From a virus, in IMG/VR virus record IMGVR_UViG_3300037042_004000, positions 1-64,000 of that record: a DNA stretch of 64,000 bases; one strand, 5' to 3'. The notes beneath the pieces are model-generated. The model worked only from the letters and a program-made list of their open reading frames with translations. It was not told where the DNA came from and searched no databases. The translations under genes were made by a program, and so were the position numbers. Positions 6,279 to 63,821 of the stretch are shown in pieces (position 1 is the stretch's first letter; the number at the start of each line of letters is the position of its first letter).

Positions 6279-6551
6279 TTATTTCAATTGCCATTTATGA
6301 GGTGTAGCTCTTTGTTCGCCAGACATATTATTTCCCAACAAATTAGCAGCTTGTTCTAGGAGTTTAGTGGCTTGTTGAATTTGTTGATTAAATTCTTTAA
6401 AACTTGGATCAATACCGAAGGTTGTACGGATTTGAGTAGCGAGAGATTGTATTTGATGTTCAGCACCAGCAATAGTGGTAGGTTCTAGAGCAGGTCCATC
6501 AATACTTGGTCTGTAGATATCATTTTCAGTAAATTGATAAAATGTTTTCAT
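6279..6551 (-). CDS. Small cargo-motif protein (start revised to 6551)
   Basis: MKTFYQFTE begins 5 nt from TATATA. Confidence 0.65.
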   Translation of the reverse strand: MKTFYQFTENDIYRPSIDGPALEPTTIAGAEHQIQSLATQIRTTFGIDPSFKEFNQQIQQATKLLEQAANLLGNNMSGEQRATPHKWQLK

Positions 6552-6580
6552 AATAATATATATTATTATGAAAACATTTT
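6539..6580. promoter_or_regulatory. 42-bp perfect palindrome centred on TATATA, spanning two divergent start codons; candidate bidirectional late promoter
   Basis: AAAATGTTTTCATAATAATATATATTATTATGAAAACATTTT is self-complementary. Confidence 0.75.
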
Positions 6581-6996
6581 TAGAATGGATAGAGGCTAAC
6601 AATTTAGAAGAGGGATTAGGGAGAAATCTTTTAACATTAGGTTTAATGGGATTAGGAAGTTTGGGGGCAGCGGGTTGTAGTGACAACAAATGCGTTAAAC
6701 AGAATCAACCAGCAGCGGCGGTTCAACAAGATCAAATAAACATAAATTTAGGTGGTGCTAGAAAAGTTACAGCCATCCTTAATGCTGGGGAGGATAATGG
6801 TAATGGAACGGTGAGATTTTTAGGAAGTAAATTATCTTTTAAAAGCAACAGTGATTTAGCGAGTCAATATGCTAAGACAGCGATTTTAAAGGCAGCGGGG
6901 TTATCTCGTGGTCACATACAAGAATTTGAAATTACTGGGACACAACAGCAGGGGAATTGGATTATTACTAATTTTCAATGGACGGGTGTAAAGTGA
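6568..6996 (+). CDS. Cargo-motif protein with a hydrophobic segment and lipobox-like AAGC
   Basis: MKTFLEWIE...LEEG followed by LLTLGLMGLGSLGAAGC. Confidence 0.7.
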   Translation: MKTFLEWIEANNLEEGLGRNLLTLGLMGLGSLGAAGCSDNKCVKQNQPAAAVQQDQININLGGARKVTAILNAGEDNGNGTVRFLGSKLSFKSNSDLASQYAKTAILKAAGLSRGHIQEFEITGTQQQGNWIITNFQWTGVK

Positions 6997-7817
6997 AAGA
7001 GGAGATTTATCCTTTTACGGCGAATATTAAGAATCATGATGGCAAGTCTGTAACTATTTACATTGATCCCAACAAAAAAGAATTAGACAAATTAGATTTT
7101 ATGGACGGTGTACGAGCATTATTAGACGTTAAGAATTGTTATGCATGGGCAAATGCTTTTCATGCAACAATAATGAGGCAACTTAGTTTAAGCAATGCCA
7201 TTCCAGTTCTTCTTTTTTATGATAACCAGACAGAGATATATGTAATGGTTACAGATGCAAGCAGAAGTACGTTATGGCATGAGAATCCCAAAGTTGCTGT
7301 AGCGATAAGAAACCATCCTTATATAAGAAAATGGAAGAAGATAGAGATAGGTTATTACAATGAGGACATTGTAGGAGATTGGGAAAAAGCGAAGACATTT
7401 AAAGAGTGGTTACATACGAATCATGCCGAATTAGGGCGAAGATATCCTAAGATAAGAGGGTCGTCGGATCTTGTGGATGGCCGCAGAGTATCTGGAAACG
7501 TAGACAACACAAGTTCAATAGGTGCAAGTTTAACAAATTGGGTAGCGATGTCGGGTATACGGCGAATACCAGCGAGTGATTTTGAGGATTGGAATTCTGG
7601 ATATTTCCCAGATTGTAGGGCAGATGAACAACAAAAAGTTAAAGAATTGGTAGCCCAGATACAGAAATCTAATAGAATATCCCCATTGATAGTGGTGATA
7701 GATGCCAAAGGGCCATATGTATTAGAGGGAGTGCATCGTTACGACGCCTTAAAGATATTGAAAGCAAATTGGGTTCCAGCATTAATTGTGATAGATCAGG
7801 ATGAGGTTGAAATATGA
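6978..7817 (+). CDS. Two-domain protein with C-terminal ParB/Srx-like domain (likely GTG start at 6993)
   Basis: ISPLIV...YVLEGVHRYDALK...VPALIV; internal KTFKEWL motif. Confidence 0.6.
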   Translation: MDGCKVKEEIYPFTANIKNHDGKSVTIYIDPNKKELDKLDFMDGVRALLDVKNCYAWANAFHATIMRQLSLSNAIPVLLFYDNQTEIYVMVTDASRSTLWHENPKVAVAIRNHPYIRKWKKIEIGYYNEDIVGDWEKAKTFKEWLHTNHAELGRRYPKIRGSSDLVDGRRVSGNVDNTSSIGASLTNWVAMSGIRRIPASDFEDWNSGYFPDCRADEQQKVKELVAQIQKSNRISPLIVVIDAKGPYVLEGVHRYDALKILKANWVPALIVIDQDEVEI

Positions 7818-8311
7818 ATTTTAAAGAGTGGTTATTTAGATCAGAGAATTATAATAAGAAAATTAGTTATAATATTTATAAAAATCCAGACAAAGCAGAA
7901 TTATTAGAGACATTGGAGAAAGACAAAAAAATTTCAAGGGCTATGTGGGATGAAGATTATGCTGGTAACGTAAGAGGGCTTTTAGTTGGAGAAGACATAT
8001 ATATTTGGCCTGAAAACGCAAGTATGCATTATGATATGGCAAGGGAGTACGACCTAAATTACAGAGTAGCATTTTATATTAATGACTGGTTAAAACTTAA
8101 TGGAAGCCACGGCGATTTAAGTAATGTAGAGAGGAATCCTAATTACATCAGAATGATGGATGGGTCAGAAGCAACATCTTCACCATCTTCTTTTACGACA
8201 AGGACTTGGAAAGACGTAATGAGAAGGCCAACGAAGGTTGAGCCGGGTGGGGCTTTTGCATTACCATATGAATCTAAGATTCCAACAATAGTTTCTCCAA
8301 CTATAAGATAA
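7814..8311 (+). CDS. Cargo-motif protein, paralogous to the N-domain of 6978-7817
   Basis: MNFKEWL; shared IYxxPxKxEL...VRxLL...YxW...H. Confidence 0.65.
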   Translation: MNFKEWLFRSENYNKKISYNIYKNPDKAELLETLEKDKKISRAMWDEDYAGNVRGLLVGEDIYIWPENASMHYDMAREYDLNYRVAFYINDWLKLNGSHGDLSNVERNPNYIRMMDGSEATSSPSSFTTRTWKDVMRRPTKVEPGGAFALPYESKIPTIVSPTIR

Positions 8312-8520
8312 GAAAATGCTTTGTCCCCATGCGGCAGAGAGTCCAGGCCACATCAGCGAGATCGTGGTGAAAAGGTGACACTCTGAGCCAGGGGTCCATT
8401 TTTTCATTTCTTTTAATTTTAATAATCTCCACCGAAGGTTTTAGCTCGTCATTAATATAACCTAATCTATATTGTACAATTTCTTTTACGATTTGTCCAC
8501 TTATATTTTTTTCTTCAATT

Positions 8521-8673: not shown

Positions 8674-8713
8674 AAATAAGCATATATACTTTTAACTTTT
8701 AAGGAGAGGAAAC

Positions 8714-9076
8714 ATGGGAGCTACAAGCGTAACAGGCGTATCTGGAGTAGGTTCTGCTGAAGGTCATACAAAGGGACCGAATAATAGTCGCAATACATAT
8801 GTGCCATTAGTTGGCCCAAGAGTTATAGCTGCTGGTCATGGTCAATTATCTACTGGAACATTGGTAGTTTATATGCCAACACCGATACCTAACGGTGCGA
8901 ATTTAATTTTATCGGTTACAGAGATATTGGTTTCATCAGCAGTCACAAGTGATGCAGCCACTATTGGAGATGTAACATTAAACGTAGGTGGTGACTTAAT
9001 ACAGTTTACCATTAAAGGGACAAATAATAATTATGTTAATTGGCTAGTTGTTAATCCTGGATTTTTCATTGGTTAA
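8714..9076 (+). CDS. MGAxSVTGV-family protein, putative virion decoration/structural protein
   Basis: Strong AAGGAG RBS; N-terminus shared with 12816-13247 and 13264-13692. Confidence 0.6.
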   Translation: MGATSVTGVSGVGSAEGHTKGPNNSRNTYVPLVGPRVIAAGHGQLSTGTLVVYMPTPIPNGANLILSVTEILVSSAVTSDAATIGDVTLNVGGDLIQFTIKGTNNNYVNWLVVNPGFFIG

Positions 9077-10702: not shown

Positions 10703-10710
10703 GTAAGCAA

Positions 10711-12815: not shown

Positions 12816-13247
12816 TTACGGAGTGTTTGGGTTGTCTTTTACGATATCCAGACCAAAACCAACAGTCAACACTTCGTACATAAATCTACCAACTTGGCCA
12901 GTAGAGCCAGATATGGTTGAATAAATGTCAAAGTGGTCAAATTGGTCATTTGTGTCATCATTTTTTACAACATACCAAGCAGTTGCTCGAATGTCGAGTT
13001 CATCTCTAGTAAATGGTGTGAGCATGACGACATATTCTGTTTCGCTTTTTGGAAGTGGACCTTCTGGAAAGTAGACAGTTGCTTGTCCCGCATATTGGTC
13101 TGTAGCATGTGCTGTTACAACTTCCCCAGCCATTACTACGTGTGGACAGAGTTGTGGAACGAAGAAATTTCGTCCATTGCTTGGTCCCTTGAGACCTGAG
13201 TTTGTAGCCGATCCTAATCCTACGCCTGTTACTGAACTTGCTCCCAT
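12816..13247 (-). CDS. MGAxSVTGV-family protein, tandem copy 2
   Basis: N- and C-termini nearly identical to 13264-13692. Confidence 0.75.
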   Translation of the reverse strand: MGASSVTGVGLGSATNSGLKGPSNGRNFFVPQLCPHVVMAGEVVTAHATDQYAGQATVYFPEGPLPKSETEYVVMLTPFTRDELDIRATAWYVVKNDDTNDQFDHFDIYSTISGSTGQVGRFMYEVLTVGFGLDIVKDNPNTP

Positions 13248-13263: not shown

Positions 13264-13692
13264 TTATGGTGTGTTTGGGTTATCTTTAACAATATCGAGA
13301 CCGAAACCAATTGTTGTTACTTCAAACATGAATCTACCAATATCTTCGGTTTGTCCGCTAATTGTTGAATAAATGTCAAAATGGTCAAATTGGTTATTTA
13401 AGTCATCGGTTTTAACAACATAGTAATTTGTGGCAACAATATCGCCATCTTCTCTCACTAATGATGTTAGCATTACAACATAATGCACTTCACTTTTAGG
13501 AAGTGGTCCTTCTGGGAAATACACAGTGGCTCTTCCGCCAGCTTCTCCCCAAGGAGTTGTTTCAACTTCGCCAGCCATAACAATGTGTGAACAAAGTTGT
13601 GGGACAAAGAAATTTCGTCCATTACTTGGACCCTTGAGACCAGACTTTTCAGCCGATCCTAACCCTACGCCTGTTACTGAACTTGCTCCCAT
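13264..13692 (-). CDS. MGAxSVTGV-family protein, tandem copy 1
   Basis: MGASSVTGVGLGSA...GFGLDIVKDNPNTP. Confidence 0.75.
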   Translation of the reverse strand: MGASSVTGVGLGSAEKSGLKGPSNGRNFFVPQLCSHIVMAGEVETTPWGEAGGRATVYFPEGPLPKSEVHYVVMLTSLVREDGDIVATNYYVVKTDDLNNQFDHFDIYSTISGQTEDIGRFMFEVTTIGFGLDIVKDNPNTP

Positions 13693-17161: not shown

Positions 17162-17207
17162 GTTTAGTTGTTCCAATATATTTAAGCTGCTATTCATATA
17201 TATTATC

Positions 17208-17672
17208 ATGGACGAAAAAGTAATTGAAACAATAGAAGAAGATATTGGAAATCTTATTCCACAAATGAATATCTCGGCACCAGCAATTGTTGAAGAAAAG
17301 CAATTAATTGAGGATGAGGCATTATTAGGCATTTATAACGAAATTATGGAAGACCTGAGAAAAGATACTGTGCAAATTGATTATTTTATTAATAATTTTG
17401 CTGATGGTCTTGCTAATGGTGGCGATGCATCTACATCAAGTAAAGAAGCGTTGGTAAATCTTTTAAAGATAAAATCCGACATGCCAGATAAAAAAGCAAA
17501 GATAGCCGATTTAATGACGAGGATTAAATTAAAGCAACCTGATACATATAAGCCATATTTGACAGCTAAACAAGAAAATAAGACAACGATTAATATATCT
17601 TCTAGTAAGAAGACTCTTTTAAAGAAGATACAAAATGCCGCTTTAAAAAACAAAGAGGGAACCGATGAATAA
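17208..17672 (+). CDS. Helical hypothetical protein
   Basis: TATATA-N5-ATG start. Confidence 0.6.
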   Translation: MDEKVIETIEEDIGNLIPQMNISAPAIVEEKQLIEDEALLGIYNEIMEDLRKDTVQIDYFINNFADGLANGGDASTSSKEALVNLLKIKSDMPDKKAKIADLMTRIKLKQPDTYKPYLTAKQENKTTINISSSKKTLLKKIQNAALKNKEGTDE

Positions 17673-18975
17673 TTTAGTATTTACAGATTGGTTACTAGAA
17701 CAAGACATGCCAGCAATGGGAGGTCAACCTGATCCAATGGCTGGACAAGCTCCAGGAGTTGATCCTACAAATGCTGCTGAACCACCTCCTCAAAGTAGTC
17801 CACCATCTGGAATGCAGCCTAATCAAAATGATCCAAATATTACTCAGCAAGCAGGACAGCCAGAAGATGTTACTCAAGACCCTCAATCGCCTGATATGCC
17901 AGAGGAAAATGAAGAAGAAGATTTTGAAACATGGAAAATCAAATATTTTAAAGCATCCGTTAAAGGTGATTCCAATGAACTAATTGATATCTTGAATGAA
18001 AAAAGAGATTCAATGGATCTTACACCTGTTCAACATAAATTTATAGAAGATAATTTCAACATTCAATTGTTACGACAAAACTCTAACATTGAAAAGGCAT
18101 CTAAAGAGATTAGAAAACTTATAAAGGATCAAATAGATAAAAACAATCCAGCAACTACTGTTGTGAATCACATGTTTTCTGTTTTAGAGACAATCCCTCA
18201 ACTTAATCAAATATACATTAAGTGCAATGGTTATGGTGGAATGAAACAAGATTTACATCGTAAATTTATTGCTGCGTTGTTAGGGGCTGTGCAAGTTGGA
18301 ACTGGCGCAAATGCTGAAGATGTTATTTTTAATGAACGAGAATATTCAATTATGATTTCTACCCGATTCAATGCTCGTTGGGGTGATGTGAATTTGGGAG
18401 ATTGGAGTTTGAGAGAGGATGATGCAGAAAGATATTTATCGGAACCAGAACAAAAAAGGATGACGGGTAATGGCTCGCCAGAAGAAAAAGACGTGCTGCG
18501 AAGAAGAGTGGTATTGGAATCCATTGCAGATCAGTTTAAACAAAGGGCTTTTATCATTAATGTAATGGGAGAGAATGGAACTGTTTATACTCTTGGTTGG
18601 GATATTAGCAATGCTTTGAAACAAGCTTATCAAGAGGGAAGATTGGTAGTTAGAACCAGACGGTCTGATAATAGTCAGGCAATGATAACTGACGAAGGCA
18701 AAATTGTTCCATTTATTGATTTGGCTATTAATTATGTAAAAGAAACTGGTGAACAAGATGAGGATGGACAACCAGCAACGGAAGAATTGGAATTTATGAG
18801 AAGGCAGAATGGGCGTTTATATTTAGTGGCAGCACTAGGAACCATTAAAGAAGCCGCACAGGGACTTGCTGGCACAACATTCCAAGAGACACCTTATTCT
18901 GGTAATCCAAGCGACCTTCGCACGATCCAAAGATGCGTGTATTCTACGAGTGACATGGTCCTAAGAAGCTGTTAA
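17665..18975 (+). CDS. Cargo-motif protein with a P/Q-rich linker; putative head core/internal protein
   Basis: FTDWLLE followed by a low-complexity PQ segment and a globular domain. Confidence 0.6.
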   Translation: MNNLVFTDWLLEQDMPAMGGQPDPMAGQAPGVDPTNAAEPPPQSSPPSGMQPNQNDPNITQQAGQPEDVTQDPQSPDMPEENEEEDFETWKIKYFKASVKGDSNELIDILNEKRDSMDLTPVQHKFIEDNFNIQLLRQNSNIEKASKEIRKLIKDQIDKNNPATTVVNHMFSVLETIPQLNQIYIKCNGYGGMKQDLHRKFIAALLGAVQVGTGANAEDVIFNEREYSIMISTRFNARWGDVNLGDWSLREDDAERYLSEPEQKRMTGNGSPEEKDVLRRRVVLESIADQFKQRAFIINVMGENGTVYTLGWDISNALKQAYQEGRLVVRTRRSDNSQAMITDEGKIVPFIDLAINYVKETGEQDEDGQPATEELEFMRRQNGRLYLVAALGTIKEAAQGLAGTTFQETPYSGNPSDLRTIQRCVYSTSDMVLRSC

Positions 18976-18991
18976 AAACAAGAGGAAAATC

Positions 18992-19483
18992 ATGGGAAGT
19001 TTTGGACAATTTGTAGACAAAAAAACAAGAGCCGCTCGTAAAAATTTAGGGGTGGTAGAACGAGTATTAAAGACAGGTGGGTTTGATATTAAGAACCACT
19101 TGGAAGAAGAAGAACCATATTTATTTTTACCAAGTCCTACCAAGAGAACATCTTTTGGTGGCATACGCATTTATAAAATTGGAGAAAGCATTGCATACAG
19201 AGTTCAAAAAGAAGAGAAGACACATCCTTATGGTAAAGCTTATCGCTTAGACATTAAAGAGATGTATGATGATTTGCTATCTGATGATGAAATGACAGAA
19301 AAGAAAGCAGCGAAAGAAGTAATTGAATCCGTATTAAAAGAGTTTAATAAGTTTTTTGAAAAGAGTTGTGAAGCTGACCGAGAAATGAGAGATCAAGATT
19401 TTGACCAACAGGGAGACCCATTGGGCAGAGTAATGGTTAGAAGCACTGGAACAGATTACAGCAACACTTTGAGAAACAGTTGA
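18992..19483 (+). CDS. Hypothetical protein
   Basis: GAGG RBS; MGSFGQFVD. Confidence 0.65.
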   Translation: MGSFGQFVDKKTRAARKNLGVVERVLKTGGFDIKNHLEEEEPYLFLPSPTKRTSFGGIRIYKIGESIAYRVQKEEKTHPYGKAYRLDIKEMYDDLLSDDEMTEKKAAKEVIESVLKEFNKFFEKSCEADREMRDQDFDQQGDPLGRVMVRSTGTDYSNTLRNS

Positions 19484-19505
19484 CATAAAGCATAAATAAT
19501 ATGCA

Positions 19506-20105
19506 ATGCCTTTTAATCCACAAGCAAGAAAAATATATCAATCTCTCTCAAACATATTAAGAGATATAAGTCAGAATTCGGAATATGTGAAGGGATTTAA
19601 TCTTCCGAGAGGTTCGATTGTAACTTTTCATTATGCTTTGTGGAAGCATGATCCATATCCTACCTTAATAGTAACCGATGCAGTTCCTCCACAATATGGC
19701 AAGGATGGCATGTTGAGAGGAATAAATATTAACTATATTACATTTAACATGTTTAGACAAAAAATATTAAATAATTGTGGTAATCCCAGTTTTTCTTATA
19801 GAACGTCGATTATAGGAGATATGTATTTAAGGCGGGCATTTAGAAGATATAAGTGGAACGCCAATAACGTAAGATTATTACAAATGTTTGATGTAAAAGA
19901 AATAATAGAGAAAGCAGGAATTGTTAGGGCTTATGATCCATCACAGGCTCAAACGATTAAAGAGTCGATTAAGAGGCAGTTAGCATTGCCATTTGGGCAA
20001 CAGAGTGCCACTGAGATGGCTCAACCACAACAACAGCAACAATTTGTTAGTAAACCAATTCCAGGACAAGGGACTGTTCCAGGAATACCAACAGGACAAC
20101 AATAA
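19506..20105 (+). CDS. T4 gp2-like DNA end protector protein
   Basis: FHY..HDPYPTLIV...GININYI...FRRY parallels the gp2 pattern. Confidence 0.5.
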   Translation: MPFNPQARKIYQSLSNILRDISQNSEYVKGFNLPRGSIVTFHYALWKHDPYPTLIVTDAVPPQYGKDGMLRGININYITFNMFRQKILNNCGNPSFSYRTSIIGDMYLRRAFRRYKWNANNVRLLQMFDVKEIIEKAGIVRAYDPSQAQTIKESIKRQLALPFGQQSATEMAQPQQQQQFVSKPIPGQGTVPGIPTGQQ

Positions 20106-20108
20106 ACG

Positions 20109-23108
20109 ATGGCACCGATTACACCAATTACACCAGAAGCCTTTGATAAAATAGAAGAATCTTTAGACAAACAATCCAAATTGTCTGCAAAGGGTGCTAC
20201 ATTACTTAAACAGATAAAAGATTTGTTAACGGCATTGGGAAGAGGAACAGTTAAAGATTTTGATAAACTTATAAACGAGATGAAGGCTGTTTCAAAGGCA
20301 ACTGCTGCAAGTAAAGCTGCTGCTGGAACTGTTGGAAAGAAGGGCGGAATAGATTTAGACAAGGCAGCAATTGCAAAATCTGGTAGTGATGCTGGTTCAT
20401 TGTTTGCAAAAATGTTTGGTAAATCTGGGAAAATGGGGAAGGGAAACGCCATATTGACAGGCACCGTTGGATTAATAGGCGAAGCTTCTAAAGAAATGGA
20501 TGTATGGGGAAGGTTGTTTAAAGGAGTCATTAAAGACGAGTGGGAGTACATGAGTAACATGCGACAAATAGGATTTGTCACACAAGGTATAACATCGGAA
20601 ACCAATGATTTGCAGGAAGCCTTTCAAGATATGGGCAGTGGACTTAGGGCTGTTCAAGAGACTGGACAAGATTTAACTACCAATCAAAGAGCATATGCTG
20701 CTTTAGTAAGACAAGGATCAAAGGCTAACAAAGAGACCTTGAGAATATCTAAAACTAGTTTAGCTCTTGGAACATTGATTGGAGGAAATGCCGAAGATAC
20801 GGCAGCGGTGTCTCAAGAAATGACGGAAATCATGGGCAAGTGGAACAGAGAGTTAAGTTTAGGGTCTAATCAAATTTCTGATATTTCAAGAGGTATTCAA
20901 GCAACAGCTAGAGGCACTGGACTTATGGGTAAAGAACTAACGGCTGTTGTTAAGTCTATGGATGTGCTGATGAAAGACATGAGAAACGCTAACACCCTAA
21001 CAGCAAGTGCGGCAAAGGCTATGATAGCACTTGCTGCAAGTGCTCATAAATTGGGTGTAGGGGAGTCAATGGAGAAATTACAAGCCGCAATGGTCAATCC
21101 TTGGAAACTTCTTAATGAGACTAGTGCGGAAGATAGAAACTACATGATGATGATTGCGTCTAGGATGGGAAAAACTAATCAATTACTTGCAGGCACAATG
21201 GGGACAACAAAAGGATTTAAAGAAATGGCTGGTAGTGCCAAAACTATGGCAGAAAATATAGCCGGAATGTCATTTGACCAACTTGAAAAACTCAGCAAGT
21301 CTAACCGACAAGCAGATAAAGAAAGGATGATGCAAATTAACCAAGCTTTAATGAAAGCGACTGGAAGGCAATTTGGGCAAATGCAGCAAGAGATTAAGGC
21401 ATGGGAAGAAGCTGGTAAAACTTTTGCTCAAAAATCAGCAGAAATGAAAAAAGCATTAAAAGAGCCTCTTTCAACCTCGAAAAAGAAAAAACTGACAGAC
21501 GATTTAAACCAGGCTGGGATCGTTGCTGCATTTGATCTTATGACACAAATAGAAGAGGCAACTGCTAGCACTAAAGATCTTGGTAAGGCTACTAAAGAAG
21601 TGTTAGGTGATAAAAAATTTGCAGAAGATTTGAAAGCCTTAGAAATAGATGTGACTAAATTAACTACTGCTCCGATGGAAGCTTTTATGGAGACAGCAAT
21701 GAGGGCCAATAAAGGAATGAAAGGCATGGATGCTAGTGCAAGAGATTTTTCAAAAGATATAGCTAAAGTAGCTGCTTCAGGCGATCTTATTGCAATGAAA
21801 GATTTGTTAGAAAATATGAGTGTTGAAAATGATGAAATAATGAAACGTAAAAGGAAAGGAGTAACGCCAGAAGAAAAAGCCTTAGATGCTTTAAATCAAA
21901 TTAACGGTTACTTGAGAGAAGAAATTGGTCCTTGGGTAAGATATCTTTCTGGCGCAATGATAGCTTTGGAATTAATTGGTGGATTATTGGGTGGGGCGTG
22001 GGGGCTAAAAACACTTTATACATTAATTGCTGGCAAGGGCGCTCTGGGAGGCGTGGTAAGTCTTGCAGGAGGTGCTGGTGGTCTTATATCTAAAATTGCT
22101 TCTCCTATTACCAAGTTAATTCCATTTTTAGGCCCGGCTGGGCCTTTGATAGTTGGATTGGCTGCTTTGGGAGCGATAATTTATGGAGCGTCTAAAATTT
22201 GGGAAGCTTGGAAAGATAGTGAATTAGCAGCTAAGAAAAACGAGGAAACAAAAAAACTTTCCGATAAAACTGTTGCAAAAGTTGCGTCTAATATGGCGCA
22301 TGGAAAAAGTATAGTTGAAAAGGCTGGTAGTCCTGAAGAAAAGTTAAAAGAATTAAATTTTCAAGAAAAACTGGTTTCTGGAAGCTTAAAAGATCGAACT
22401 AAAAAGGCTACAGAGGCTAAAAAAGACGTAGAATCTTATAGTTGGTATCAACAATGGGGTAGTGATTACGAAACTTCCGTAAAACTTTCTGCGAATTTAG
22501 ACAAAGAAATTACTACTAGAAAATCACAGTTAGAAGATATTAGAAAACAAAAAAAAGCACTTGAAGAGGCCGGTGTTAAAGCATTGCCGCCTGATTCGCC
22601 TGACAAATTTAAGAAAGTGGTTGCAACGGCAACTGATAAAGTGGCTGCTAAAGATGCAGGTAAAAACTTGGATAAAATTGGTGATGCGGCAGATGCAGCA
22701 ACTACCGAGGGAAGTATTTATGTTCATGATATTGCTCTTGAGAAAATTTTATCTAGTTTTTTAATGGGACCAAATGAATCTGCTGCGTCTGTCAGTTCCA
22801 TGCCAATGTTAACTGAGGGTGAGCGAGCGGAAAAAATGCAACAAGGGTTTAAGTTGGAAGGAGAGGGAGATAATTCATTAACTTCCATTGCCAAATTTAA
22901 TGAAGAACAAGTAGTATTATTAAGTTCAATTAATGAAGGTATACAATTGTTGGCTAATTTGTGGAAACCATCATCTGCTAAAGCTAGTCAAACAGATGCG
23001 GGGGGATCAAACAATACAGGATCGCCTGGAAGAGTTGCTGCCGATTATGGTAGGTGGCCAGTATTGCAAAGTCATGGTGCTAGTACAGGAGTTATTGCAA
23101 ATGCCTAA
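20109..23108 (+). CDS. Tail tape measure protein
   Basis: 999 aa, helical, rich in A/K/M with a Gly-rich hydrophobic stretch; directly upstream of the baseplate genes. Confidence 0.8.
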   Translation: MAPITPITPEAFDKIEESLDKQSKLSAKGATLLKQIKDLLTALGRGTVKDFDKLINEMKAVSKATAASKAAAGTVGKKGGIDLDKAAIAKSGSDAGSLFAKMFGKSGKMGKGNAILTGTVGLIGEASKEMDVWGRLFKGVIKDEWEYMSNMRQIGFVTQGITSETNDLQEAFQDMGSGLRAVQETGQDLTTNQRAYAALVRQGSKANKETLRISKTSLALGTLIGGNAEDTAAVSQEMTEIMGKWNRELSLGSNQISDISRGIQATARGTGLMGKELTAVVKSMDVLMKDMRNANTLTASAAKAMIALAASAHKLGVGESMEKLQAAMVNPWKLLNETSAEDRNYMMMIASRMGKTNQLLAGTMGTTKGFKEMAGSAKTMAENIAGMSFDQLEKLSKSNRQADKERMMQINQALMKATGRQFGQMQQEIKAWEEAGKTFAQKSAEMKKALKEPLSTSKKKKLTDDLNQAGIVAAFDLMTQIEEATASTKDLGKATKEVLGDKKFAEDLKALEIDVTKLTTAPMEAFMETAMRANKGMKGMDASARDFSKDIAKVAASGDLIAMKDLLENMSVENDEIMKRKRKGVTPEEKALDALNQINGYLREEIGPWVRYLSGAMIALELIGGLLGGAWGLKTLYTLIAGKGALGGVVSLAGGAGGLISKIASPITKLIPFLGPAGPLIVGLAALGAIIYGASKIWEAWKDSELAAKKNEETKKLSDKTVAKVASNMAHGKSIVEKAGSPEEKLKELNFQEKLVSGSLKDRTKKATEAKKDVESYSWYQQWGSDYETSVKLSANLDKEITTRKSQLEDIRKQKKALEEAGVKALPPDSPDKFKKVVATATDKVAAKDAGKNLDKIGDAADAATTEGSIYVHDIALEKILSSFLMGPNESAASVSSMPMLTEGERAEKMQQGFKLEGEGDNSLTSIAKFNEEQVVLLSSINEGIQLLANLWKPSSAKASQTDAGGSNNTGSPGRVAADYGRWPVLQSHGASTGVIANA

Positions 23109-23649
23109 AGCTACAAATAATGGTAAATTAAACAAATTAGATGATAATAAATTTTATATTCTCATACCAAAAAATGGGGGTTTACCAGAGCGTAAAATTT
23201 CGTTTTATGTATTGCCAGAAATTTCAGATTCTAAGTCAGCGGTATATGCAGATGAATCAATTATGGGAAGATCAATGCCACTAAAAACCTATTCTTATTC
23301 TGACAATAGAAGCATTGGTGTTAATATACATTTTTTGGTAACTAGTCAAAAGGATATTAGTGAAAACATTACGGCTATGCGATCTTTACAAAGTTGTGTA
23401 TATCCAGGTGAAGAAGGTAATTTCCCATTTACTCCTCCACCTGTATGTAAGATAAAATTTGGAGATATATTGGGCAGCAAGCCGTTGTGTTGTGTGCTTA
23501 AGTCCTATTCTGTAAAATTTCCAACTGAAGTAGCATGGGATGCGACTTATTTTATACCATACAAATTTGATATGGATACAAATTGGGATGTTGTTTACAA
23601 CAGTATGGATCTTCCAAGCTCTACTAGAATTTTACAGTTCGGAGTATAA
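23101..23649 (+). CDS. Tail tube initiator/baseplate tube-like protein (start revised)
   Basis: ISDSKSA.Y...IMGRS.P...YS...PPVCKIKFG; follows the tape measure gene. Confidence 0.65.
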   Translation: MPKATNNGKLNKLDDNKFYILIPKNGGLPERKISFYVLPEISDSKSAVYADESIMGRSMPLKTYSYSDNRSIGVNIHFLVTSQKDISENITAMRSLQSCVYPGEEGNFPFTPPPVCKIKFGDILGSKPLCCVLKSYSVKFPTEVAWDATYFIPYKFDMDTNWDVVYNSMDLPSSTRILQFGV

Positions 23650-23651
23650 AG

Positions 23652-23978
23652 ATGGCAAACAAAATAGAAATTACAACAATAGATCCCCAAAAAAATGGTT
23701 TGGCAGCTCCAATGAGTCGATACACTACTAGCCAAGTAATTTATTATGGCGATGCTAAAAAAATGACTTATGCAACATATGTGAAAAATGTTGCAAATAT
23801 AAATAAATCAGATAGATATGCCGTTATTCCGCCTGGATATGAGTATCGTCCTGATCGAGCTTCTATTGAAGCTTACGGTATACCGGATTTGTGGTGGAAA
23901 ATTATGGAAGCCAATAATATAAAAGACATATTTGATTTTAAAGCCGGGAGAACAATCAGATTACCGGAGAACATTTAA
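23652..23978 (+). CDS. gp53/LysM-like baseplate wedge protein
   Basis: RPDRAS..AYG.PDLWWKIMEANNI.D...G..IRLP. Confidence 0.8.
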   Translation: MANKIEITTIDPQKNGLAAPMSRYTTSQVIYYGDAKKMTYATYVKNVANINKSDRYAVIPPGYEYRPDRASIEAYGIPDLWWKIMEANNIKDIFDFKAGRTIRLPENI

Positions 23979-27229: not shown

Positions 27230-27231
27230 AA

Positions 27232-27624: not shown

Positions 27625-27625
27625 G

Positions 27626-29200: not shown

Positions 29201-29210
29201 AGGAGCAATT

Positions 29211-32827: not shown

Positions 32828-32839
32828 TAAGGAGAAACT

Positions 32840-34695: not shown

Positions 34696-34736
34696 ATTAT
34701 TACTCTTATATAATATCTTATTTTAAGGAGAGCCAA

Positions 34737-42990: not shown

Positions 42991-43038
42991 TTTTGAGATT
43001 GATTGTTAAAACAATTTTATATAATTGAGGAGATAAAA

Positions 43039-46812: not shown

Positions 46813-46834
46813 TGAAGTAATTCATATATAAGTT

Positions 46835-48109
46835 ATGGATACAAAAGATATTAAAGTTGCAATGGACAAAATAGAGGCTGATTTTGCTTCTGAGATTTCG
46901 CAACTTTTCGACGCTTTAAAAATTAAACTTAATAATATTCAATCGCCGGTTCAACCTACACCTCCTACACAAACACAGGTTGAACCGGCGTCTCCTATTG
47001 AACAACCACAAGTAAATCCTAATTGGAAAATGCCAACTTGGTGGGACACATTCAGACAACATGGTGCCATTGGTGTAGGTAAAAGAATTTGGAGAGGAAC
47101 TAATCCTCATGATGACAATGTTTGGTCACGTATAAATAAAGAATCATTTTTGCCATCTTTAGAAGATTATCTTATGATTGAAAGAGAATCAATTAATTTG
47201 GTTAATGAGTTCTTCCAATTAAATGAGGCAATAAGCCCAGAAATAGCTAGAATATTAGATGCTTTTAAAGCACAAGTTATTAAGGTTGTAAAAAGAACTG
47301 GTTTTAAGATATTTAAATTGGGTCGTTTGGTTAAACCAGTTGAACAATCGCCAGTTGAACAACCGCCAGTTGAACAACCAACTACAAACATGCCTTCAGA
47401 ACCAATTGTGGCCATGCCTGGCAGAAGTCCTTTTGTAACAGCATCTACCGAAGACCCAGAAGAACCAAAACCTGAACCCGAAGAACCTAATATACCACTA
47501 TCAAATGAGCCAGAACAAATTCTTAAAAATTACGGGCTTAAGGCAATGCAAATTCGGGCTATAAAAAGCAGGGGAGAAGATGCCTTGTCTAAAGCAGCAG
47601 ATTTTGTTACAAAAGCTAAATCAGCACAAAATGAAGCAGAATTTGCTGAAGCAGTTTTAGGAGAAACTTACAAGACATTACTTAAAAAAGGATATAGTCC
47701 ACAAAAATGGTTTAAGAAAGACCAATTGCCGCATATTGAATTTGTAGATCATCAAGACCCTGATGCAGAAGAAGCTTTAGCGGATATCTGTGTCGCTTTA
47801 AAAAGAGGAGATCTATTTAAAATTATTGTAGAACCGAAAGAAAAGGGAGAGGTTCAAAAGAATATGATGTCATTAATGCCTGGCCCAGGGGTCTTTTATA
47901 AGGATAAGGCACGGGTATTTGATGAATTGAAAAAAGCTCTTGGTAGCGAAAAAGATGCTGAAGTAGAACAGTATTTAGATAATAAAATATCGCAAAGATT
48001 TCCTGCTAATAGTGTTGTAGATAAGGCTCAAAAAGAATCTGGAAGACGATCTAATTATGCAAATAGATCAAAAAGTCTATTTGATAAATTTGGCGAACCA
48101 AATTATTAA
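46835..48109 (+). CDS. Pro/Glu-rich hypothetical protein, possible internal protein
   Basis: TATATA-N4-ATG; PVEQ repeats. Confidence 0.65.
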   Translation: MDTKDIKVAMDKIEADFASEISQLFDALKIKLNNIQSPVQPTPPTQTQVEPASPIEQPQVNPNWKMPTWWDTFRQHGAIGVGKRIWRGTNPHDDNVWSRINKESFLPSLEDYLMIERESINLVNEFFQLNEAISPEIARILDAFKAQVIKVVKRTGFKIFKLGRLVKPVEQSPVEQPPVEQPTTNMPSEPIVAMPGRSPFVTASTEDPEEPKPEPEEPNIPLSNEPEQILKNYGLKAMQIRAIKSRGEDALSKAADFVTKAKSAQNEAEFAEAVLGETYKTLLKKGYSPQKWFKKDQLPHIEFVDHQDPDAEEALADICVALKRGDLFKIIVEPKEKGEVQKNMMSLMPGPGVFYKDKARVFDELKKALGSEKDAEVEQYLDNKISQRFPANSVVDKAQKESGRRSNYANRSKSLFDKFGEPNY

Positions 48110-52113: not shown

Positions 52114-52128
52114 GCAATATATAGGATG

Positions 52129-52843: not shown

Positions 52844-53908
52844 CTACATTGCTAATTGCAACAGATATTCATCGGTAACAGGTTTTTCTGAAACTTCTAA
52901 ATAATGAATTAATAATTTGGGTCCAACATTCACAAGCATTGCGTTCCAATCTTTGTAAATTTGTGGAGGTCTGACGAAAGATATTTTCATTCCTCTTGCC
53001 TGCATTTTTTCTATCATGTTTTTAATGCCTTCTTTGCCTGCCGAGTCGGAATCGAGACATAACACAATTTGGTATGGTTGTAAGAATTCCAGTTGTTTAT
53101 CAGAAATATTTTTGCCACCAAAAGCAGCAGAATATGTTTTAAATTCTCCAGCATAATAGATAGAGATGGCATCGAATTCGCCTTCCGTCAAAAAAAGCTT
53201 AGCTCCTTCTTTAGGCCAAGTTCCTTCTTCTATCATAGCGCTAGGAAAAAACAGAACATCACCTTTACCTAATCCGACTGTTATTTGTGGCCCAAGATAT
53301 TTTGGAACCTTATCATTGTCCCCAATATATCGACCATTGTAATAAATTAGTCTTCCATCATTGTTGTAATATGGGATTACAATTCTTTGACGATATCGCC
53401 CATTAGTAGAAATTAGTAGACCGTCTGTAGATAATTTTCTTTTGTTTAAGTATGTTTCTGCTTCTATGCGATAACGACTGCTTGTAGGTATTTCATTTAT
53501 TGGATAAGTAAATGGTGGTAGGTTTAAAAATTCAGGTTTTTTTTCTTCAACAATTACTGGTTCTGGTGGTTTGATAAATAATTTTTCTATTTCTTTTTCT
53601 AGGTCTCTAATATCATTGTTTTCACTGCCCAAAATAAAACAAGCTTCTTCAAATGAACATTTTTCTATCTCCATTAGGAGCCCTATGATTGTTCCCGTTT
53701 TGCCCGAGGACCAACAATGATAGCAACCGTTCGATATTTGTTTTTTTCCACCTTTAGTATCGCAATGAAGAGAATGTTCACGATCACGCCGACCACTCGA
53801 TGTTTGAAAACAGGTATTTATTCTTATGATCGAATCCCCAACTGTGACAACATCACCAGGGAACTTGCTTTCACACCATTCAACAAATTTTTCAAAATTT
53901 ATTGACAT
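52844..53908 (-). CDS. DNA primase (TOPRIM)
   Basis: RIVIPY, YNGR, PKY, LTEGEFDAIS, CLDSDSAG, KDWN. Confidence 0.9.
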   Translation of the reverse strand: MSINFEKFVEWCESKFPGDVVTVGDSIIRINTCFQTSSGRRDREHSLHCDTKGGKKQISNGCYHCWSSGKTGTIIGLLMEIEKCSFEEACFILGSENNDIRDLEKEIEKLFIKPPEPVIVEEKKPEFLNLPPFTYPINEIPTSSRYRIEAETYLNKRKLSTDGLLISTNGRYRQRIVIPYYNNDGRLIYYNGRYIGDNDKVPKYLGPQITVGLGKGDVLFFPSAMIEEGTWPKEGAKLFLTEGEFDAISIYYAGEFKTYSAAFGGKNISDKQLEFLQPYQIVLCLDSDSAGKEGIKNMIEKMQARGMKISFVRPPQIYKDWNAMLVNVGPKLLIHYLEVSEKPVTDEYLLQLAM

Positions 53909-54897
53909 TTTATCTCAACACCCCTTTGTTCCAACCATTTTAAAAAATCTTTCTCTGAATATTTACAACCTTTTGAAATATTGTTTAACAACAGCATGGG
54001 CTGTAAATTATCAAGACAGTTTATTAATTTTACATTTGTTATATTGTGATCCACGAATGCTTTGATGGGGAAAATGTGGTCAACAGACCATTTTCCATCT
54101 TTTATTTTATGCCAATTTGGATGATTTGTCAAATGTTTTTCGAGGTCAATTCTTGTATAGCCAAGCAAGTCTGCACTTTTACATTTTTTTGTTTGTCCAA
54201 TTGCCAATAATGTGTGTTTAACTAATTTTTGACAACGATTTTGCATCACTTTATTAAATTTAACTCTTTCTCTGTCGGGGTTCCATGCTGGATTATTAGG
54301 GCCTTTACGACGGTCAAGATAGGCACTGCCAGTAGTTGTTTCTATTATCTTTTTAATTCCACATTTTCGACATCTTTGTCCCATTTTGAATTTACAAAAT
54401 CTTATTATGTTTTCTTCGCCACATTCACATATGTACTTCATTGGTGTATTTGCGTCTGTATATTTATCTAATAGTTTACATTTGTTGTCTAAGAAATATT
54501 GATTAACATCTTCTTGTTTCCATTTTCTTTTTTCAAGACTACACTTTTTGCAACAACCGCTTTTTATAAATCTATGAAAGATAGTAACTGCTTCTTCGCC
54601 ACAGAAGCAAATATATCGTAATTTTTGTAGGCTATTAATGTATTTATTTTCTAATAAAACACATCCATGTTCTTCAAAACATTTTTTGATATAATCATAT
54701 TCCAATTGCTTGCTGCCACCACAAACTATACATCTATTACCCGATTTAAAATTGGCCCAAGAAATAAATCCTTCGTGCCCATTTTTACAAACATATTTCA
54801 TTTTAGTGGTATTGTTGATGTATTCTTTTTCCAATAATTGGCAGCCATTGTCCGTAAAATATTTTTTAACATACTCATAATTTAATTTTTTTCCCAT
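53899..54897 (-). CDS. HNH homing-endonuclease-like protein with three N-terminal zinc-finger repeats (start revised)
   Basis: Y(V/I)CxxG...RCxxC x3; WSVDHIFPI...NLQPM...NISKG. Confidence 0.8.
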   Translation of the reverse strand: MGKKLNYEYVKKYFTDNGCQLLEKEYINNTTKMKYVCKNGHEGFISWANFKSGNRCIVCGGSKQLEYDYIKKCFEEHGCVLLENKYINSLQKLRYICFCGEEAVTIFHRFIKSGCCKKCSLEKRKWKQEDVNQYFLDNKCKLLDKYTDANTPMKYICECGEENIIRFCKFKMGQRCRKCGIKKIIETTTGSAYLDRRKGPNNPAWNPDRERVKFNKVMQNRCQKLVKHTLLAIGQTKKCKSADLLGYTRIDLEKHLTNHPNWHKIKDGKWSVDHIFPIKAFVDHNITNVKLINCLDNLQPMLLLNNISKGCKYSEKDFLKWLEQRGVEIKCQ

Positions 54898-54934
54898 ACT
54901 CTTATATAGTATATTTGTTTCAGAAAAAAGCGAT

Positions 54935-55111
54935 ATGAGCGATTTAATTACTCCAAAAAAAGCAGCGGAAATTTTAGGTGTGTTGCCGAATACTATAAGA
55001 AATTGGGAACGGGACAATAAAATCTCCGCCATTAAAACTTTAGGTGGTCATCGACGTTACCATTTAGATGAAATTAAAAAATTGCTTGAAAATAATAACA
55101 AAAAGGATTAA
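54935..55111 (+). CDS. 58-aa MerR-type HTH protein (like the IS607 TnpA N-domain or an excisionase); not in the ORF track
   Basis: MSDLITPKKAAEILGVLPNTIRNWERDNKISAIKTLGGHRRYHLDEI. Confidence 0.85.
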   Translation: MSDLITPKKAAEILGVLPNTIRNWERDNKISAIKTLGGHRRYHLDEIKKLLENNNKKD

Positions 55112-55120
55112 AATAAAATA

Positions 55121-56207: not shown

Positions 56208-56972
56208 TCAAGGCAAAATGATATAACTCTTAGGATATCGTCTACCAGGATTAATATAATCAATAATTGGTATTTCTTGGGCGAAACTATAGGAATTTAC
56301 CAACCATCCATATCCATTTCTTTTATAAACGGCTCTAATATTTTCTAAATTAGTAAACCAACCTTTCCCCATACCGTGTTTTATGTCGTTACTGGCAAAA
56401 CAAGTGCCAACATAATATTCTTTATCCAATAGTCCACCACCAGACCGTCCCGATCTTGGACTATTTAGACGAGTAGAAATAATACCCCCTACTTGCTCAA
56501 TAAATTCTACAGAATAAACAGCTACTTCATCTCCAAAATCACATCCAGTTGATATAAGTTCTTTTCCAGGGTTCATTTTATAATTATTTGGGGCTATCGA
56601 AAAATACTTAGGCTTCCAATCAGGCTTAAAAACTACACAACTACTATCTTGTCCAGGTTTCAGGCTCCAAAATAAAACTTTTGCTTTATAGGTTCTAGGG
56701 ATTAGTAATTTAATTTTATTGTGATACCAAACAACAATTTTACAATCAGCAGAACTGTTCTCATCCCACAAATGTCCGCAGGATGCAACATAGGCGTTAT
56801 TATTTTTAGCATCATAATAAATAATTGTTCCACTACCATAATTATCACCCGCTTTAATAAGAACGCTAGCGCTTAAGTAATTGATATATTTTAAGCCTCT
56901 TTGTGGAAGTGGATCACCAAATACCTTGTTGACAAAACATGCCAAAAAAAGTAAAATTATAAAGCGTTTCAT
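56208..56972 (-). CDS. Secreted trypsin-like serine protease
   Basis: Signal peptide; GSG, SCGH, QD, GRSGGGL triad motifs. Confidence 0.8.
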   Translation of the reverse strand: MKRFIILLFLACFVNKVFGDPLPQRGLKYINYLSASVLIKAGDNYGSGTIIYYDAKNNNAYVASCGHLWDENSSADCKIVVWYHNKIKLLIPRTYKAKVLFWSLKPGQDSSCVVFKPDWKPKYFSIAPNNYKMNPGKELISTGCDFGDEVAVYSVEFIEQVGGIISTRLNSPRSGRSGGGLLDKEYYVGTCFASNDIKHGMGKGWFTNLENIRAVYKRNGYGWLVNSYSFAQEIPIIDYINPGRRYPKSYIILP

Positions 56973-56983
56973 ATAAATTATAT

Positions 56984-57466
56984 ATGTCTATATTAATTGT
57001 GTCTCATAATATTTATCTAACTAGAGAAGAAAGATATTCTCTGGTCTCTAAAATCCCAATAGAGGTAGTTGGAGTAAGTATTCCTGTATGGGCCAAAGAA
57101 GGGGTTACTACAGAACCAGCAAAAGAGGTTTTTTGCAAATATGAAATATCAGACAATGGATCGAAAAAATTAGTTAGTTTTTCGAATAATAAATATCAAA
57201 TTGTTTTGCCAAGTTCTAATGGTCATATTGTATCAAGACCAACAAACGAAGAATGGCGACAGATAAGTAAAGAAAACCAAGAACTTTGGTATGAACACCA
57301 TCAACCTATTCCGACTTCTAAAAATCTTTTAGATATGAAAGACGGTGGTGCAGCTTATTTGAAGTTTAGGTATAGAACTATAATTGTTAAAGAAGAACAA
57401 AAAACCCCAGTTTTCCATTTTGTAGAGATTAAACCAATAGAAATTTTATTAGAATCACTTACTTAA
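56984..57466 (+). CDS. Hypothetical protein
   Basis: ORF track; divergent pair with the protease gene. Confidence 0.6.
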   Translation: MSILIVSHNIYLTREERYSLVSKIPIEVVGVSIPVWAKEGVTTEPAKEVFCKYEISDNGSKKLVSFSNNKYQIVLPSSNGHIVSRPTNEEWRQISKENQELWYEHHQPIPTSKNLLDMKDGGAAYLKFRYRTIIVKEEQKTPVFHFVEIKPIEILLESLT

Positions 57467-57969: not shown

Positions 57970-57984
57970 AGTAATATATAGTGT

Positions 57985-60881: not shown

Positions 60882-60909
60882 TTTGTCTCTCCTTTCTATT
60901 ATATATTAT

Positions 60910-61506: not shown

Positions 61507-61537
61507 AATTTGTAATAATTTGCCTATATATTTGGAC

Positions 61538-62305: not shown

Positions 62306-62757
62306 AAGAAGAATAGAAAATAAACTATTGCTCCAACTTGTGCTACTATAACTCCAATTCCAGTCCAATCCCACGCATTTAATTTCTTTTCATCTTCAGC
62401 CTTTAGTAAGGCTCTTCTTGTTGGGATTTTTAATGCGGCTACTTGTTCTTTAAGAGAAGTGAGTTCTGCTTCGTAATTAGATGATGGTTGTTCTTTTACA
62501 ACCGTTCTCTCTACTTCAGTTAAATTTAATGTATATTCTGGCTTAAAAGTTTCTTTCTTAATAACGGTCTGACCATCTTCGTCATAGGTGTGAATTTCTC
62601 TTTCAACAATCACAGGCGCTCTTCGTTCAATTATTTTTTCACTTAAAAATTTTGGGACTGGTTTTTCCACCCAAATTTCCTGAACAGTTTCTTCATAAAT
62701 TCTTTTTTCGGCTTTTCGGCCATCTTCTAATACAATTTGTTTTACGGTTTCACTCAT
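62302..62757 (-). CDS. Hypothetical protein with a C-terminal transmembrane helix
   Basis: Ends GIGVIVAQVGAIVYFLFF. Confidence 0.6.
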   Translation of the reverse strand: MSETVKQIVLEDGRKAEKRIYEETVQEIWVEKPVPKFLSEKIIERRAPVIVEREIHTYDEDGQTVIKKETFKPEYTLNLTEVERTVVKEQPSSNYEAELTSLKEQVAALKIPTRRALLKAEDEKKLNAWDWTGIGVIVAQVGAIVYFLFFF

Positions 62758-62847
62758 ACAATGCCCTCATTCTGATTATTATATAGTAGTAAACGTAGAA
62801 AATTTTCATGATTAATAATCGCCAAAAAGAAGGCTAATTTTGGGCAC

Positions 62848-63051
62848 TTATTTGTTTATTTTTTGCTTTATTTCTTTAAGGTCTTGGTGGATGTTATCAA
62901 CTATCTCTTTATTATGTGTAATTATCTCTTGATTTTGTGTAACTATTGTGTGGTTGTGCAAAGTTAATATGGCATTACTAATGACAAAAATCACTATTAC
63001 TACATTAAAAATAAATTGCACAACATATAAAGACACTGAAATATTTTTCAT
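62848..63051 (-). CDS. Small membrane protein
   Basis: N-terminal TM helix plus a coiled tail; TATATA-N4-ATG. Confidence 0.55.
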   Translation of the reverse strand: MKNISVSLYVVQFIFNVVIVIFVISNAILTLHNHTIVTQNQEIITHNKEIVDNIHQDLKEIKQKINK

Positions 63052-63065
63052 ACAATATATAGTGT

Positions 63066-63821
63066 ATGATTACTTTTTTGGAGTATGTTAAAAAGAAAAA
63101 ATTCTCAAAAAAATTCATACAACAATACGGACACTTTAAAGTCTGTGTTGTGAATGGCAAGGCAGTTAGGGATTTTTCTAAAGAGGCAGAGGAATTCGGG
63201 GAAATTTCTATACACCCTTATTTTCCTACTCTAATTCCAAAAAACGAAATTTGGATAGAGGATAATATTAAACCGAAAGAACAAGGAGTGTTAATTGCGT
63301 CCGCTTTACATCAATTGAAAAAAATAGAAAGTGGCATGTCTTTGGAAAAGGCATATGAAGATGGTATGAAAAAACAAAATAAATATAGAGAAGCTATATT
63401 GTTATCCAAAAAGAAAATTTATTCAACAAATAAGTCGGCACCAGATTATGTTTATATTAAAAAATATGGGCATGTAGAAAACGAAGATGTAGATGTTTGG
63501 CTGGTGGATGGTGAAACAGTAAGAAACCATTTTAAGGTTGATTATTTGGAAGGGGGACATGGATATGTTTATGGATGGATTCCCAATGGTGAAATTTGGA
63601 TAGAAAAAAGCCCACATCCAAATGAGTGGTCATATATTTTACTTCATGAATATGTTGAATTGGTGTTAATGAAATATAAGAAGATGGGGTACGATAAAGC
63701 TCATGCAATAGCATCTAAATGCGAATGGTATATGCGAAAATATAAATCAAATTATTCTAAAAAACAAGCTCTTTCTCTTACCAAAGAAAAAGCACTTGAA
63801 TTAGTTAGGAGAAACAAATGA
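63066..63821 (+). CDS. Cargo-motif protein with an internally duplicated metallopeptidase-like domain
   Basis: MITFLEYV; V.G..VR...IP..EIWIE twice; LLHEYVE...AH. Confidence 0.6.
   Translation: MITFLEYVKKKKFSKKFIQQYGHFKVCVVNGKAVRDFSKEAEEFGEISIHPYFPTLIPKNEIWIEDNIKPKEQGVLIASALHQLKKIESGMSLEKAYEDGMKKQNKYREAILLSKKKIYSTNKSAPDYVYIKKYGHVENEDVDVWLVDGETVRNHFKVDYLEGGHGYVYGWIPNGEIWIEKSPHPNEWSYILLHEYVELVLMKYKKMGYDKAHAIASKCEWYMRKYKSNYSKKQALSLTKEKALELVRRNK

Follow-up and report, generated by a model that had tools for sequence, protein, structure and literature searches.

A palindromic TATATA box four to five nucleotides before start codons as a candidate T4-type late promoter for leaderless, two-way transcription in a huge phage

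In the virus record IMGVR_UViG_3300037042_004000 of IMG/VR, which comes from a sediment metagenome, the hexamer TATATA recurs four or five nucleotides (nt) before the ATG of about 15 genes that have no Shine-Dalgarno (SD) site. The window analysed here is a stretch of 64,000 nt, the first 64 kb of a 74,322-bp contig; positions are counted from its first letter, and genes are named by the position of their start codon and their strand. The box is very probably a promoter core. In the best explanation, to which a probability of about 0.55 is given for the whole chain, TATATA (in the context A-[C/A]-TATATA-[A/T/G]-T) would be the central element of a T4-late-type promoter that has a -10 box only, read by the host RNA polymerase with a small phage sigma factor made of region 2 only, like T4 gp55. 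With the box 5 (or 4) nt before the ATG, RNA would begin on, or within a base of, the A of AUG, yielding a leaderless mRNA that would be translated without an SD site, while a box lying 15-31 nt upstream would give a short leader bearing one. As the hexamer is its own reverse complement, a single copy between divergent ATGs 15-17 bp apart can serve either gene, and would do so one polymerase at a time.

Placement of the TATATA box

A preliminary description of this DNA had listed 12 starts preceded by the box, and all 12 indeed read TATATA-N4-ATG or TATATA-N5-ATG on the strand of the gene. When TATATA-Nk-ATG was counted on both strands of the 74.3-kb contig, the histogram peaked at k = 4 (10 occurrences) and k = 5 (7 occurrences), above the expectation from AT content: 100 second-order Markov simulations gave means of 1.6 and 1.75, with maxima of 4 and 5, respectively. 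The total number of TATATA copies (42) equals the expected one (43 +/- 8), so that the signal lies in placement and not in abundance. An unbiased scan of all hexamers at spacings of 0-15 nt upstream of ATGs opening open reading frames (ORFs) of at least 60 codons returned, as its top signals, TATATA at 4 nt (7 versus 0.41) and at 5 nt (6 versus 0.41), alongside AGGAGA at 5 nt (6 versus 0.27); the box is thus as strong a signal before ATGs as the SD site itself. Fourth in the same scan was AAATAA at 4 nt (6 versus 0.5), and the string (G/T)AAATAAAATA-ATG is found at the starts of both 6274(-) and 55121(+).

The distribution of the copies resembles that of a promoter. Non-coding DNA, only 6.5% of the contig, wholly contains 20 of the 42 copies, and TATAAA shows no such non-coding enrichment. 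The box is found in 11 of 15 divergent gaps, in 8 of 61 tandem gaps and in none of the 16 convergent gaps, which contain as much DNA as the divergent ones; after shuffling of the divergent gaps, a mean of 1.8 held the box, with a maximum of 6. No conserved -35 element appears 15-25 nt upstream of the boxes. The flanks read A-[C/A]-TATATA-[A/T/G]-T, and 13 of 17 boxes have the form TATATAwT, which contains a TANNNT frame.

The distance between box and ATG is bimodal, being either 4-8 nt without an SD site (about 17 starts) or 15-31 nt with an SD site in between. At the short-distance starts no SD-like word was flagged. The long-distance, SD-containing class comprises the boxes at 568, 1102, 8683(+), 34707(+), 43018, 60900(-), 62780(-) and 65555(-), and several boxes, for example those at 60900 and 65555, have a short-distance start on one side and a leadered start on the opposite one. 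The two distances, with an SD site between box and ATG in the long class, argue against a fixed translational signal.

Three divergent gene pairs constitute the most compact arrangement. Their gaps of 16 nt (6552-6567), 15 nt (57970-57984) and 14 nt (63052-63065) each hold a single TATATA and no SD site, exactly as first described. The box at 6557-6562 is common to 6551(-) and 6568(+), with N5 on either side; that at 57975-57980 is common to 57969(-), with N5, and 57985(+), with N4; and that at 63056-63061 is common to 63051(-) and 63066(+), with N4 on either side. The first of them is the centre of a 42-nt perfect palindrome (6539-6580), which reaches 13 nt into both divergent genes because both open with ATGAAAACATTT (MKTF, the same four codons). 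To our knowledge, such one-box pairs would rank among the most compact two-gene control regions, with 14-16 bp for the promoter and both starts.

Among the remaining sites of the original dozen, the box at 17197-17202(+) lies N5 before ATG 17208, the first gene of a tail/baseplate operon (17208-34158), and 35 nt from the chosen ATG (17161) of a divergent minus-strand gene. The box at 44694-44699(+), N4 before ATG 44704, is located within the 3' end of the upstream gene. Those at 46825-46830(+) and 52118-52123(-) stand N4 before ATG 46835 (424 amino acids) and ATG 52113 (a 1335-amino-acid protein), both without an SD site. The box at 54903-54908(-) is N5 before ATG 54897, which opens an HNH-endonuclease-like gene of 332 amino acids (53899-54897(-)); the phrog_559 profile matches it at 2e-21 from residue 2 of the short form, which favours this start over ATG 55032. 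Finally, the box at 60900-60905 is N4 before 60910(+), without SD site, and is separated from 60881(-) by 18 nt that include AAGGAG. At 6551, 6568, 46835, 52113, 56972, 57969, 63051, 63066 and 65566, no earlier ATG exists in the ORF, while the starts at 17208, 44704, 54897, 60910 and 61538 were picked partly on account of the box.

Further sites were found at somewhat larger spacings, namely 56972(-) with N6, 61538(+) with N7 (box 61525-61530) and 2905(+) with N8 (box 2891-2896), and, beyond the window on the same contig, 65566(+) with N5 and 74187(-) with N7. The first of these belongs to a divergent gap of 11 nt (56972-56984), in which TATATA (56979-56984) is N6 before 56972(-) and TATAAA (56972-56977) is N6 before 56984(+). 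Leadered boxes are located at 8683-8688, 25 nt before 8714(+) with AAGGAG and 9 nt before 8673(-); at 34707-34712, 24 nt before 34737(+), the head of the next plus-strand operon, with AAGGAG, and 11 nt before 34695(-); at 43018-43023, 15 nt before 43039(+), where GAGGAG comes immediately past the predicted start; at 62780-62785, 22 nt before 62757(-) with an SD site; and at 568-573, 31 nt before 605(+). A similar one, at 1102-1107, is 43 nt before 1151(+).

Relatives, start-point geometry and a second, putative leaderless class

CheckV assigns the contig a completeness of 15%, which implies a whole genome of about 500 kb. Its GC content is 33-41%, a clear SD site (AAGGAG or GGAG, at 5-8 nt) precedes about half of its genes, and the window encodes a contractile-tail baseplate module (hub/Phage_base_V at 25388, wedge/gpJ-like at 27626 and Tail_P2_I at 29211). 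The closest GenBank record is LR756511.1, an unannotated "uncultured phage" of 595 kb, with 45% amino-acid identity in the wedge protein, and relatives of this protein were found at 325 IMG/VR loci, some of them on contigs of 130-340 kb. Searches of GenBank phages by megablast with 8 kb and by tblastn with the 1335-amino-acid protein gave no match, and no related loci were found for 46835-48109 or for the N-terminal 500 amino acids of that protein. The relatives compared most closely, records of 225-595 kb, were G001 (225 kb), G006 and LR756511.1 (of which the first 400 kb were scanned).

These relatives carry the box as TATATA or (C)TAAATA, 4-6 nt before ATGs, and the element is thus clade-wide. 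The hexamer scan returned TATATA at 5 nt in G001 (10 versus 1.3) and in G006 (15 versus 1.2, together with CTATAT at 6 nt and TAAATA at 4 nt), and TAAATA at 4 nt (10) and 5 nt (8) followed by TATATA at 5 nt (7), often preceded by C, in LR756511.1. Compared with a reversed-pattern control, the box was found 50 versus 21 times in G006, 11 versus 2 in G007, 12 versus 2 in G008, 17 versus 9 in G001 and 7 versus 1 in G002. TATATA-N4-ATG by itself is not enriched in LR756511.1 (6 versus 7), because TAAATA is the main form of the box there. The pooled signal is weak across 80 loci around the baseplate wedge gene, but these loci are operon interiors with few promoters and do not constitute a fair test.

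Conservation can also be followed at individual genes. The first gene of the tail operon keeps its box in G007/L105 (tcaTATATAccatcATG, 54% amino-acid identity) and in G001, the position orthologous to the box of 17208 reading tcaTATATAnnatcATG in L105/L106 and ctactatatatacatcATG in G001, and the G006 orthologue of 63066 has cTAAATAagatATG. The divergent neighbour of this orthologue has an inverted GCCTAAATA box of its own, followed by an SD site. The 54-nt divergent gap in G006 (L107, 1440-1503) contains GCCTAAATA twice, in inverted orientation and pointing outwards, one copy 4 nt before its ATG and the other 15 nt before its ATG with an SD site in between; two non-palindromic boxes do there what one palindromic box appears to do in the present contig.

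The geometry of known late promoters indicates where RNA could start. The T4 late promoter TATAAATA spans -13 to -6, and the Aeh1 box CTAAATA begins at -12 (PMC1524935). The form cTATATA agrees with CTAAATA at 6 of 7 positions, and, since the T4 late box ends at -6, the arrangement box-N5-ATG sets +1 on the A of ATG. The bases around the putative start were counted over this contig, G001 and G006: a pyrimidine occupies -1 at 45 of 52 box-led starts versus 128 of 244 GGAG-led starts (Fisher test, 4e-6). Bacterial RNA polymerases favour a pyrimidine at -1 and a purine at +1, and the preference observed at -1 therefore fits an RNA start on the A of ATG. From these sequence features, RNA is predicted, with reasonable confidence, to start within 2 nt of AUG at the boxed genes, which would make their transcripts leaderless.

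A second type of promoter is joined to start codons in the same clade. In G001, a gap of exactly 6 nt separates the end of a sigma-70-type promoter (TTGnnn, 16-18 nt, TANNNT) from an ORF-opening ATG in 12 cases (at 66025 and 11 other sites), while every other spacing occurs 0-4 times; 6 nt is the canonical distance of a sigma-70-type promoter for a start on the A of ATG. Seven of the ten tested G001 proteins led by such promoters have Pfam matches, most of which point to the metabolism of DNA or nucleotides (a PD-(D/E)XK nuclease, a DnaB-like helicase, a P-loop kinase, a thymidylate synthase and a nucleoside deoxyribosyltransferase), the remaining two being a histidine phosphatase and a DUF4326 protein. 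Ten box-led proteins, in comparison, comprise one T4 gp15 tail-sheath stabiliser, two glycosyltransferases and seven without a match. The sigma-70-type genes of G001 apparently form a second leaderless class, expressed early. Each of the two promoter types thus stands at its own canonical distance from ATGs and leads its own kind of genes; no other indirect evidence speaks as strongly for leaderless transcripts and an early/late split. The sole sigma-70-type promoter of this kind in the window is TTGAAA-17-TAAAAT at 55086-55114(+), which ends 6 nt (aaaata) before ATG 55121 of a PD-(D/E)XK exonuclease; TAAAATaaaataATG is kept in its G001 orthologue.

The candidate reader of the box and competing explanations

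A candidate for the factor that reads the box is found in the relatives. G001, G002 and LR756511.1 each have 3-4 Sigma70_r2 matches. One of those in G001, a protein of 173 amino acids, matches Pfam Sigma70_r2 at 2.4e-7, has no region 4 and matches phrog_234 ("late sigma transcription factor") at 4e-6. It has a 61%-identical homologue in LR756511.1 and a weak similarity (31% identity) to the annotated late sigma factor of Ochrobactrum phage vB_OspM_OC. A sequence search of the PDB with this protein gave no relevant match, and none to a solved gp55 structure. A phrog_234 profile search gave no match in the genomes searched, but since none of these is a known carrier of the family (G001 was not one of them), the result does not speak for its absence. 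A gp55-like sigma factor is somewhat favoured as the reader of the box.

Concerning timing, box-led units include the operon of the baseplate hub, wedge and Tail_P2_I genes and, in G001, the gp15 homologue; late expression of the box-led genes is considered slightly more likely than not. G001 also encodes a T4 Gp23-type capsid protein. In G001 and G006 the major capsid genes lie inside operons, are preceded by SD sites and have no box in the 1.5 kb before them; they are uninformative on the box. Pfam searches for Phage_sheath_1 and DNA_pol_B found nothing in G000, G001 and G006.

Two recurrent N-termini were observed along the way. The motif M-x-x-F-x-x-W/F-L/I-E, which we take to resemble the T4 capsid-targeting sequence, opens many unrelated proteins (for example those of 605, 1151, 1546, 6031(-), 6551(-), 6568, 7814, 17161(-), 52113(-), 57985, 58885 and 63066), as well as 16 of 35 box-led genes in LR756511.1. 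In the contig such tags are not specific to boxed genes (6 of about 17 box-led versus 8 of about 45 SD-led), and they were not used to support late timing. Paralogous proteins beginning MGA(S/T)(S/T)VTG.G.GSA are encoded at 8714-9076, 12816-13247(-) and 13264-13692(-), and G001 genes 154329 and 174350, with the same MGA(S/T)(S/T)VTG-type N-terminus, are box-led (MGAQTTEGTGFGSAEG and MGATTTEGSGAGSAAG).

Several observations weigh against a T4-type late box with leaderless starts. If T4 spacing were kept strictly, RNA from the N4 sites would begin on the T of ATG, and a flexibility of 1 nt has to be assumed; the preference for ATG over GTG or TTG is marginal (44 of 52 box-led versus 173 of 244 GGAG-led starts, p = 0.056). 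Neither a sigma gene nor one for RNA polymerase lies in the 74-kb fragment, about 15% of the genome; four other partial relatives gave no match for the gp55-like sigma; and searches of seven records for a T4 gp45-type clamp (PF09116, PF02916), made with no positive control, detected none. The box-led genes include an HNH endonuclease, and most lack annotation. The type of start is only partly conserved, 3 of 8 orthologues of box-led genes keeping the box, compared with 20 of 23 orthologues of SD-led genes keeping the SD site. Lastly, tight one-box divergent pairs are frequent in the contig and rare in G001 and G006.

Considered together with these points, the preliminary description holds in part. 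Its T4-like promoter is supported by a -10-like box that has no -35 element and resembles the T4 and Aeh1 late boxes, while the gp55-like sigma it anticipated is missing from the fragment and has its counterpart in the small region-2-only protein of G001 and LR756511.1. The proposed late class agrees with the baseplate operon and the gp15 homologue of G001, but rests on few annotated genes. Leaderless starts are predicted for the box class; the leadered uses of the box and the apparent sigma-70-type leaderless class of G001 had been overlooked. As to bidirectionality, three pairs do have the A's of their ATGs 15, 16 and 17 bp apart around one symmetric TATATA; the hexamer may fire both ways, and two-way firing might in turn account for the frequent strand switching among accessory genes.

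The alternative that survives best, although it is unlikely, dispenses with a phage sigma factor and reads the box as a -10 element of the host primary sigma, as in the "-10 motif next to the ORF" of Deinococcus-Thermus. The TANNNT frame present in 13 of the 17 boxes would suit it, the clade clearly fuses host-type promoters to ATGs, and Deinococcus likewise pairs TANNNT and GGAG upstream of ORFs (PMC12340547). The distance speaks against this alternative: the only TANNNT frame (TATAwT) ends 2-3 nt before the ATG, whereas the sigma-70-type promoters of the clade end 6 nt before it, so that under sigma-70 geometry RNA would begin inside the ORF. The boxes also have neither a -35 element nor a TG extension, and the two promoter types head different kinds of genes.

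Still less probable is that TATATA acts in the RNA, as a 5' untranslated region (UTR) signal for A/U-rich, SD-free ribosome loading or as a processing site, with the promoters elsewhere. A fixed short distance to the ATG and the lack of an SD site would suit a translation signal, but the same box also occurs 15-31 nt upstream with a normal SD site in between, and in the divergent gaps of 14-16 nt each promoter would need to sit inside the opposite gene. In addition, none of the 16 convergent gaps has the box, operon interiors are not enriched in it, and it resembles a known DNA promoter box.

The self-complementary core and the perfect palindrome at 6539-6580 could instead suggest an operator or another protein-binding DNA site at gene starts (for a repressor or a nucleoid protein, or a recombination site). 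Such a role is very improbable: beyond the divergent pairs the symmetry stops at the hexamer, the long palindrome is accounted for by the shared first four codons, and the non-palindromic TAAATA takes the place of the box at the same distance in relatives.

An early promoter of a virion-packaged RNA polymerase of the phiKZ/AR9 type (in AR9, AAATATATATTAT-N6-G, with G as +1) has hardly any chance of being the right answer, even though sites such as ATAATATATATTATT (6553-6567) resemble the AR9 early consensus (PMC5312081). The conserved stretch in the contig covers 6-8 nt and not 13, a start 6 nt past the consensus would land inside the ORFs, AR9 UTRs measure 26-491 nt and phiKZ has no leaderless transcripts. 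Moreover, five relatives, the 595-kb record among them, gave no match to an RNA polymerase beta domain (PF00562, a model that divergent split subunits could escape), whereas several sigma genes are present. An archaeal TATA box (at about -26) and late initiators of the poxvirus or African swine fever virus (ASFV) type were rejected, this being a tailed phage with SD-led genes and a box at -11 to -6.

Significance and comparison with known systems

With the T4-type late box as the preferred explanation, a broader and more tentative picture, rated somewhat below even odds, can be drawn. It would be that of a clade of phages of about 500 kb with a largely leaderless programme, in which host-type -35/-10 promoters stand 6 nt before the ATGs of early DNA-metabolism genes and T4-type late boxes 4-5 nt before those of late genes, the late box being palindromic in this phage so that one 6-bp element serves two genes with starts 14-16 nt apart. 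If starts map as predicted, these huge phages make many of their proteins without the help of ribosome-binding sites, and in at least one relative this apparently applies to early as well as late genes. A clade-wide programme of this kind would mean that the infected cell favours leaderless translation, and would raise the question of how it becomes biased in this way. The box would also mark true start codons and transcription units, allowing better annotation of gene starts and operons in a large group of metagenomic phages that are mostly unannotated. The separate parts (the T4 late promoter, leaderless phage mRNAs and symmetric bidirectional promoters) are known; T4-type boxes joined directly to start codons were not found described in the literature searched.

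T4 late promoters, which depend on gp55, gp33 and the gp45 clamp, are similar in their short -10-type A/T box, in having no -35 element and in heading operons of virion genes. The likeness extends to a small region-2-only sigma factor in two relatives and a Gp23-type capsid protein in one. T4 late mRNAs carry leaders with SD sites. In the contig, by contrast, the core forms a palindrome and lies only 4-5 nt before the ATG, so that no SD site and, as predicted, no leader is present, and no gp55, gp33 or gp45 homologue is seen in the fragment, no search having been aimed at gp33.

Most middle and late mRNAs of the Thermus phage phiYS40 are leaderless (PMC3594737), and in Deinococcus the host RNA polymerase uses TANNNT as a classical -10 region (PMC12340547). 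Here too, a -10-type element directly precedes the ATG, and a putative temporal class without SD sites exists beside SD-led genes. The differences are that the box of the contig has T4 late sequence and spacing, that a separate sigma-70-type leaderless class is found in at least one relative, and that the lineage is an unrelated one of huge phages of about 500 kb.

Among jumbo phages that have been studied, phiKZ and AR9 produce leadered mRNAs (AR9: PMC5312081). Their early promoters (AAATATATATTAT-N6-G) share with some sites of the contig an A/T-rich, TATATATTAT-like string; the core of the contig is far shorter, its predicted start differs and no split RNA polymerase genes were found in the relatives.

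In many bacteria, divergent transcription with starts 18 bp apart is driven by symmetric, overlapping -10 elements (bioRxiv 10.1101/2020.01.31.928960, Warman et al.). In the divergent pairs of the contig, similarly, two starts a fixed short distance apart flank one symmetric -10-type element. Unlike in these bacterial promoters, the distance is 15-17 bp instead of 18, both starts would fall on start codons, the whole gap is 14-16 nt, and the element is probably read by a phage sigma factor.

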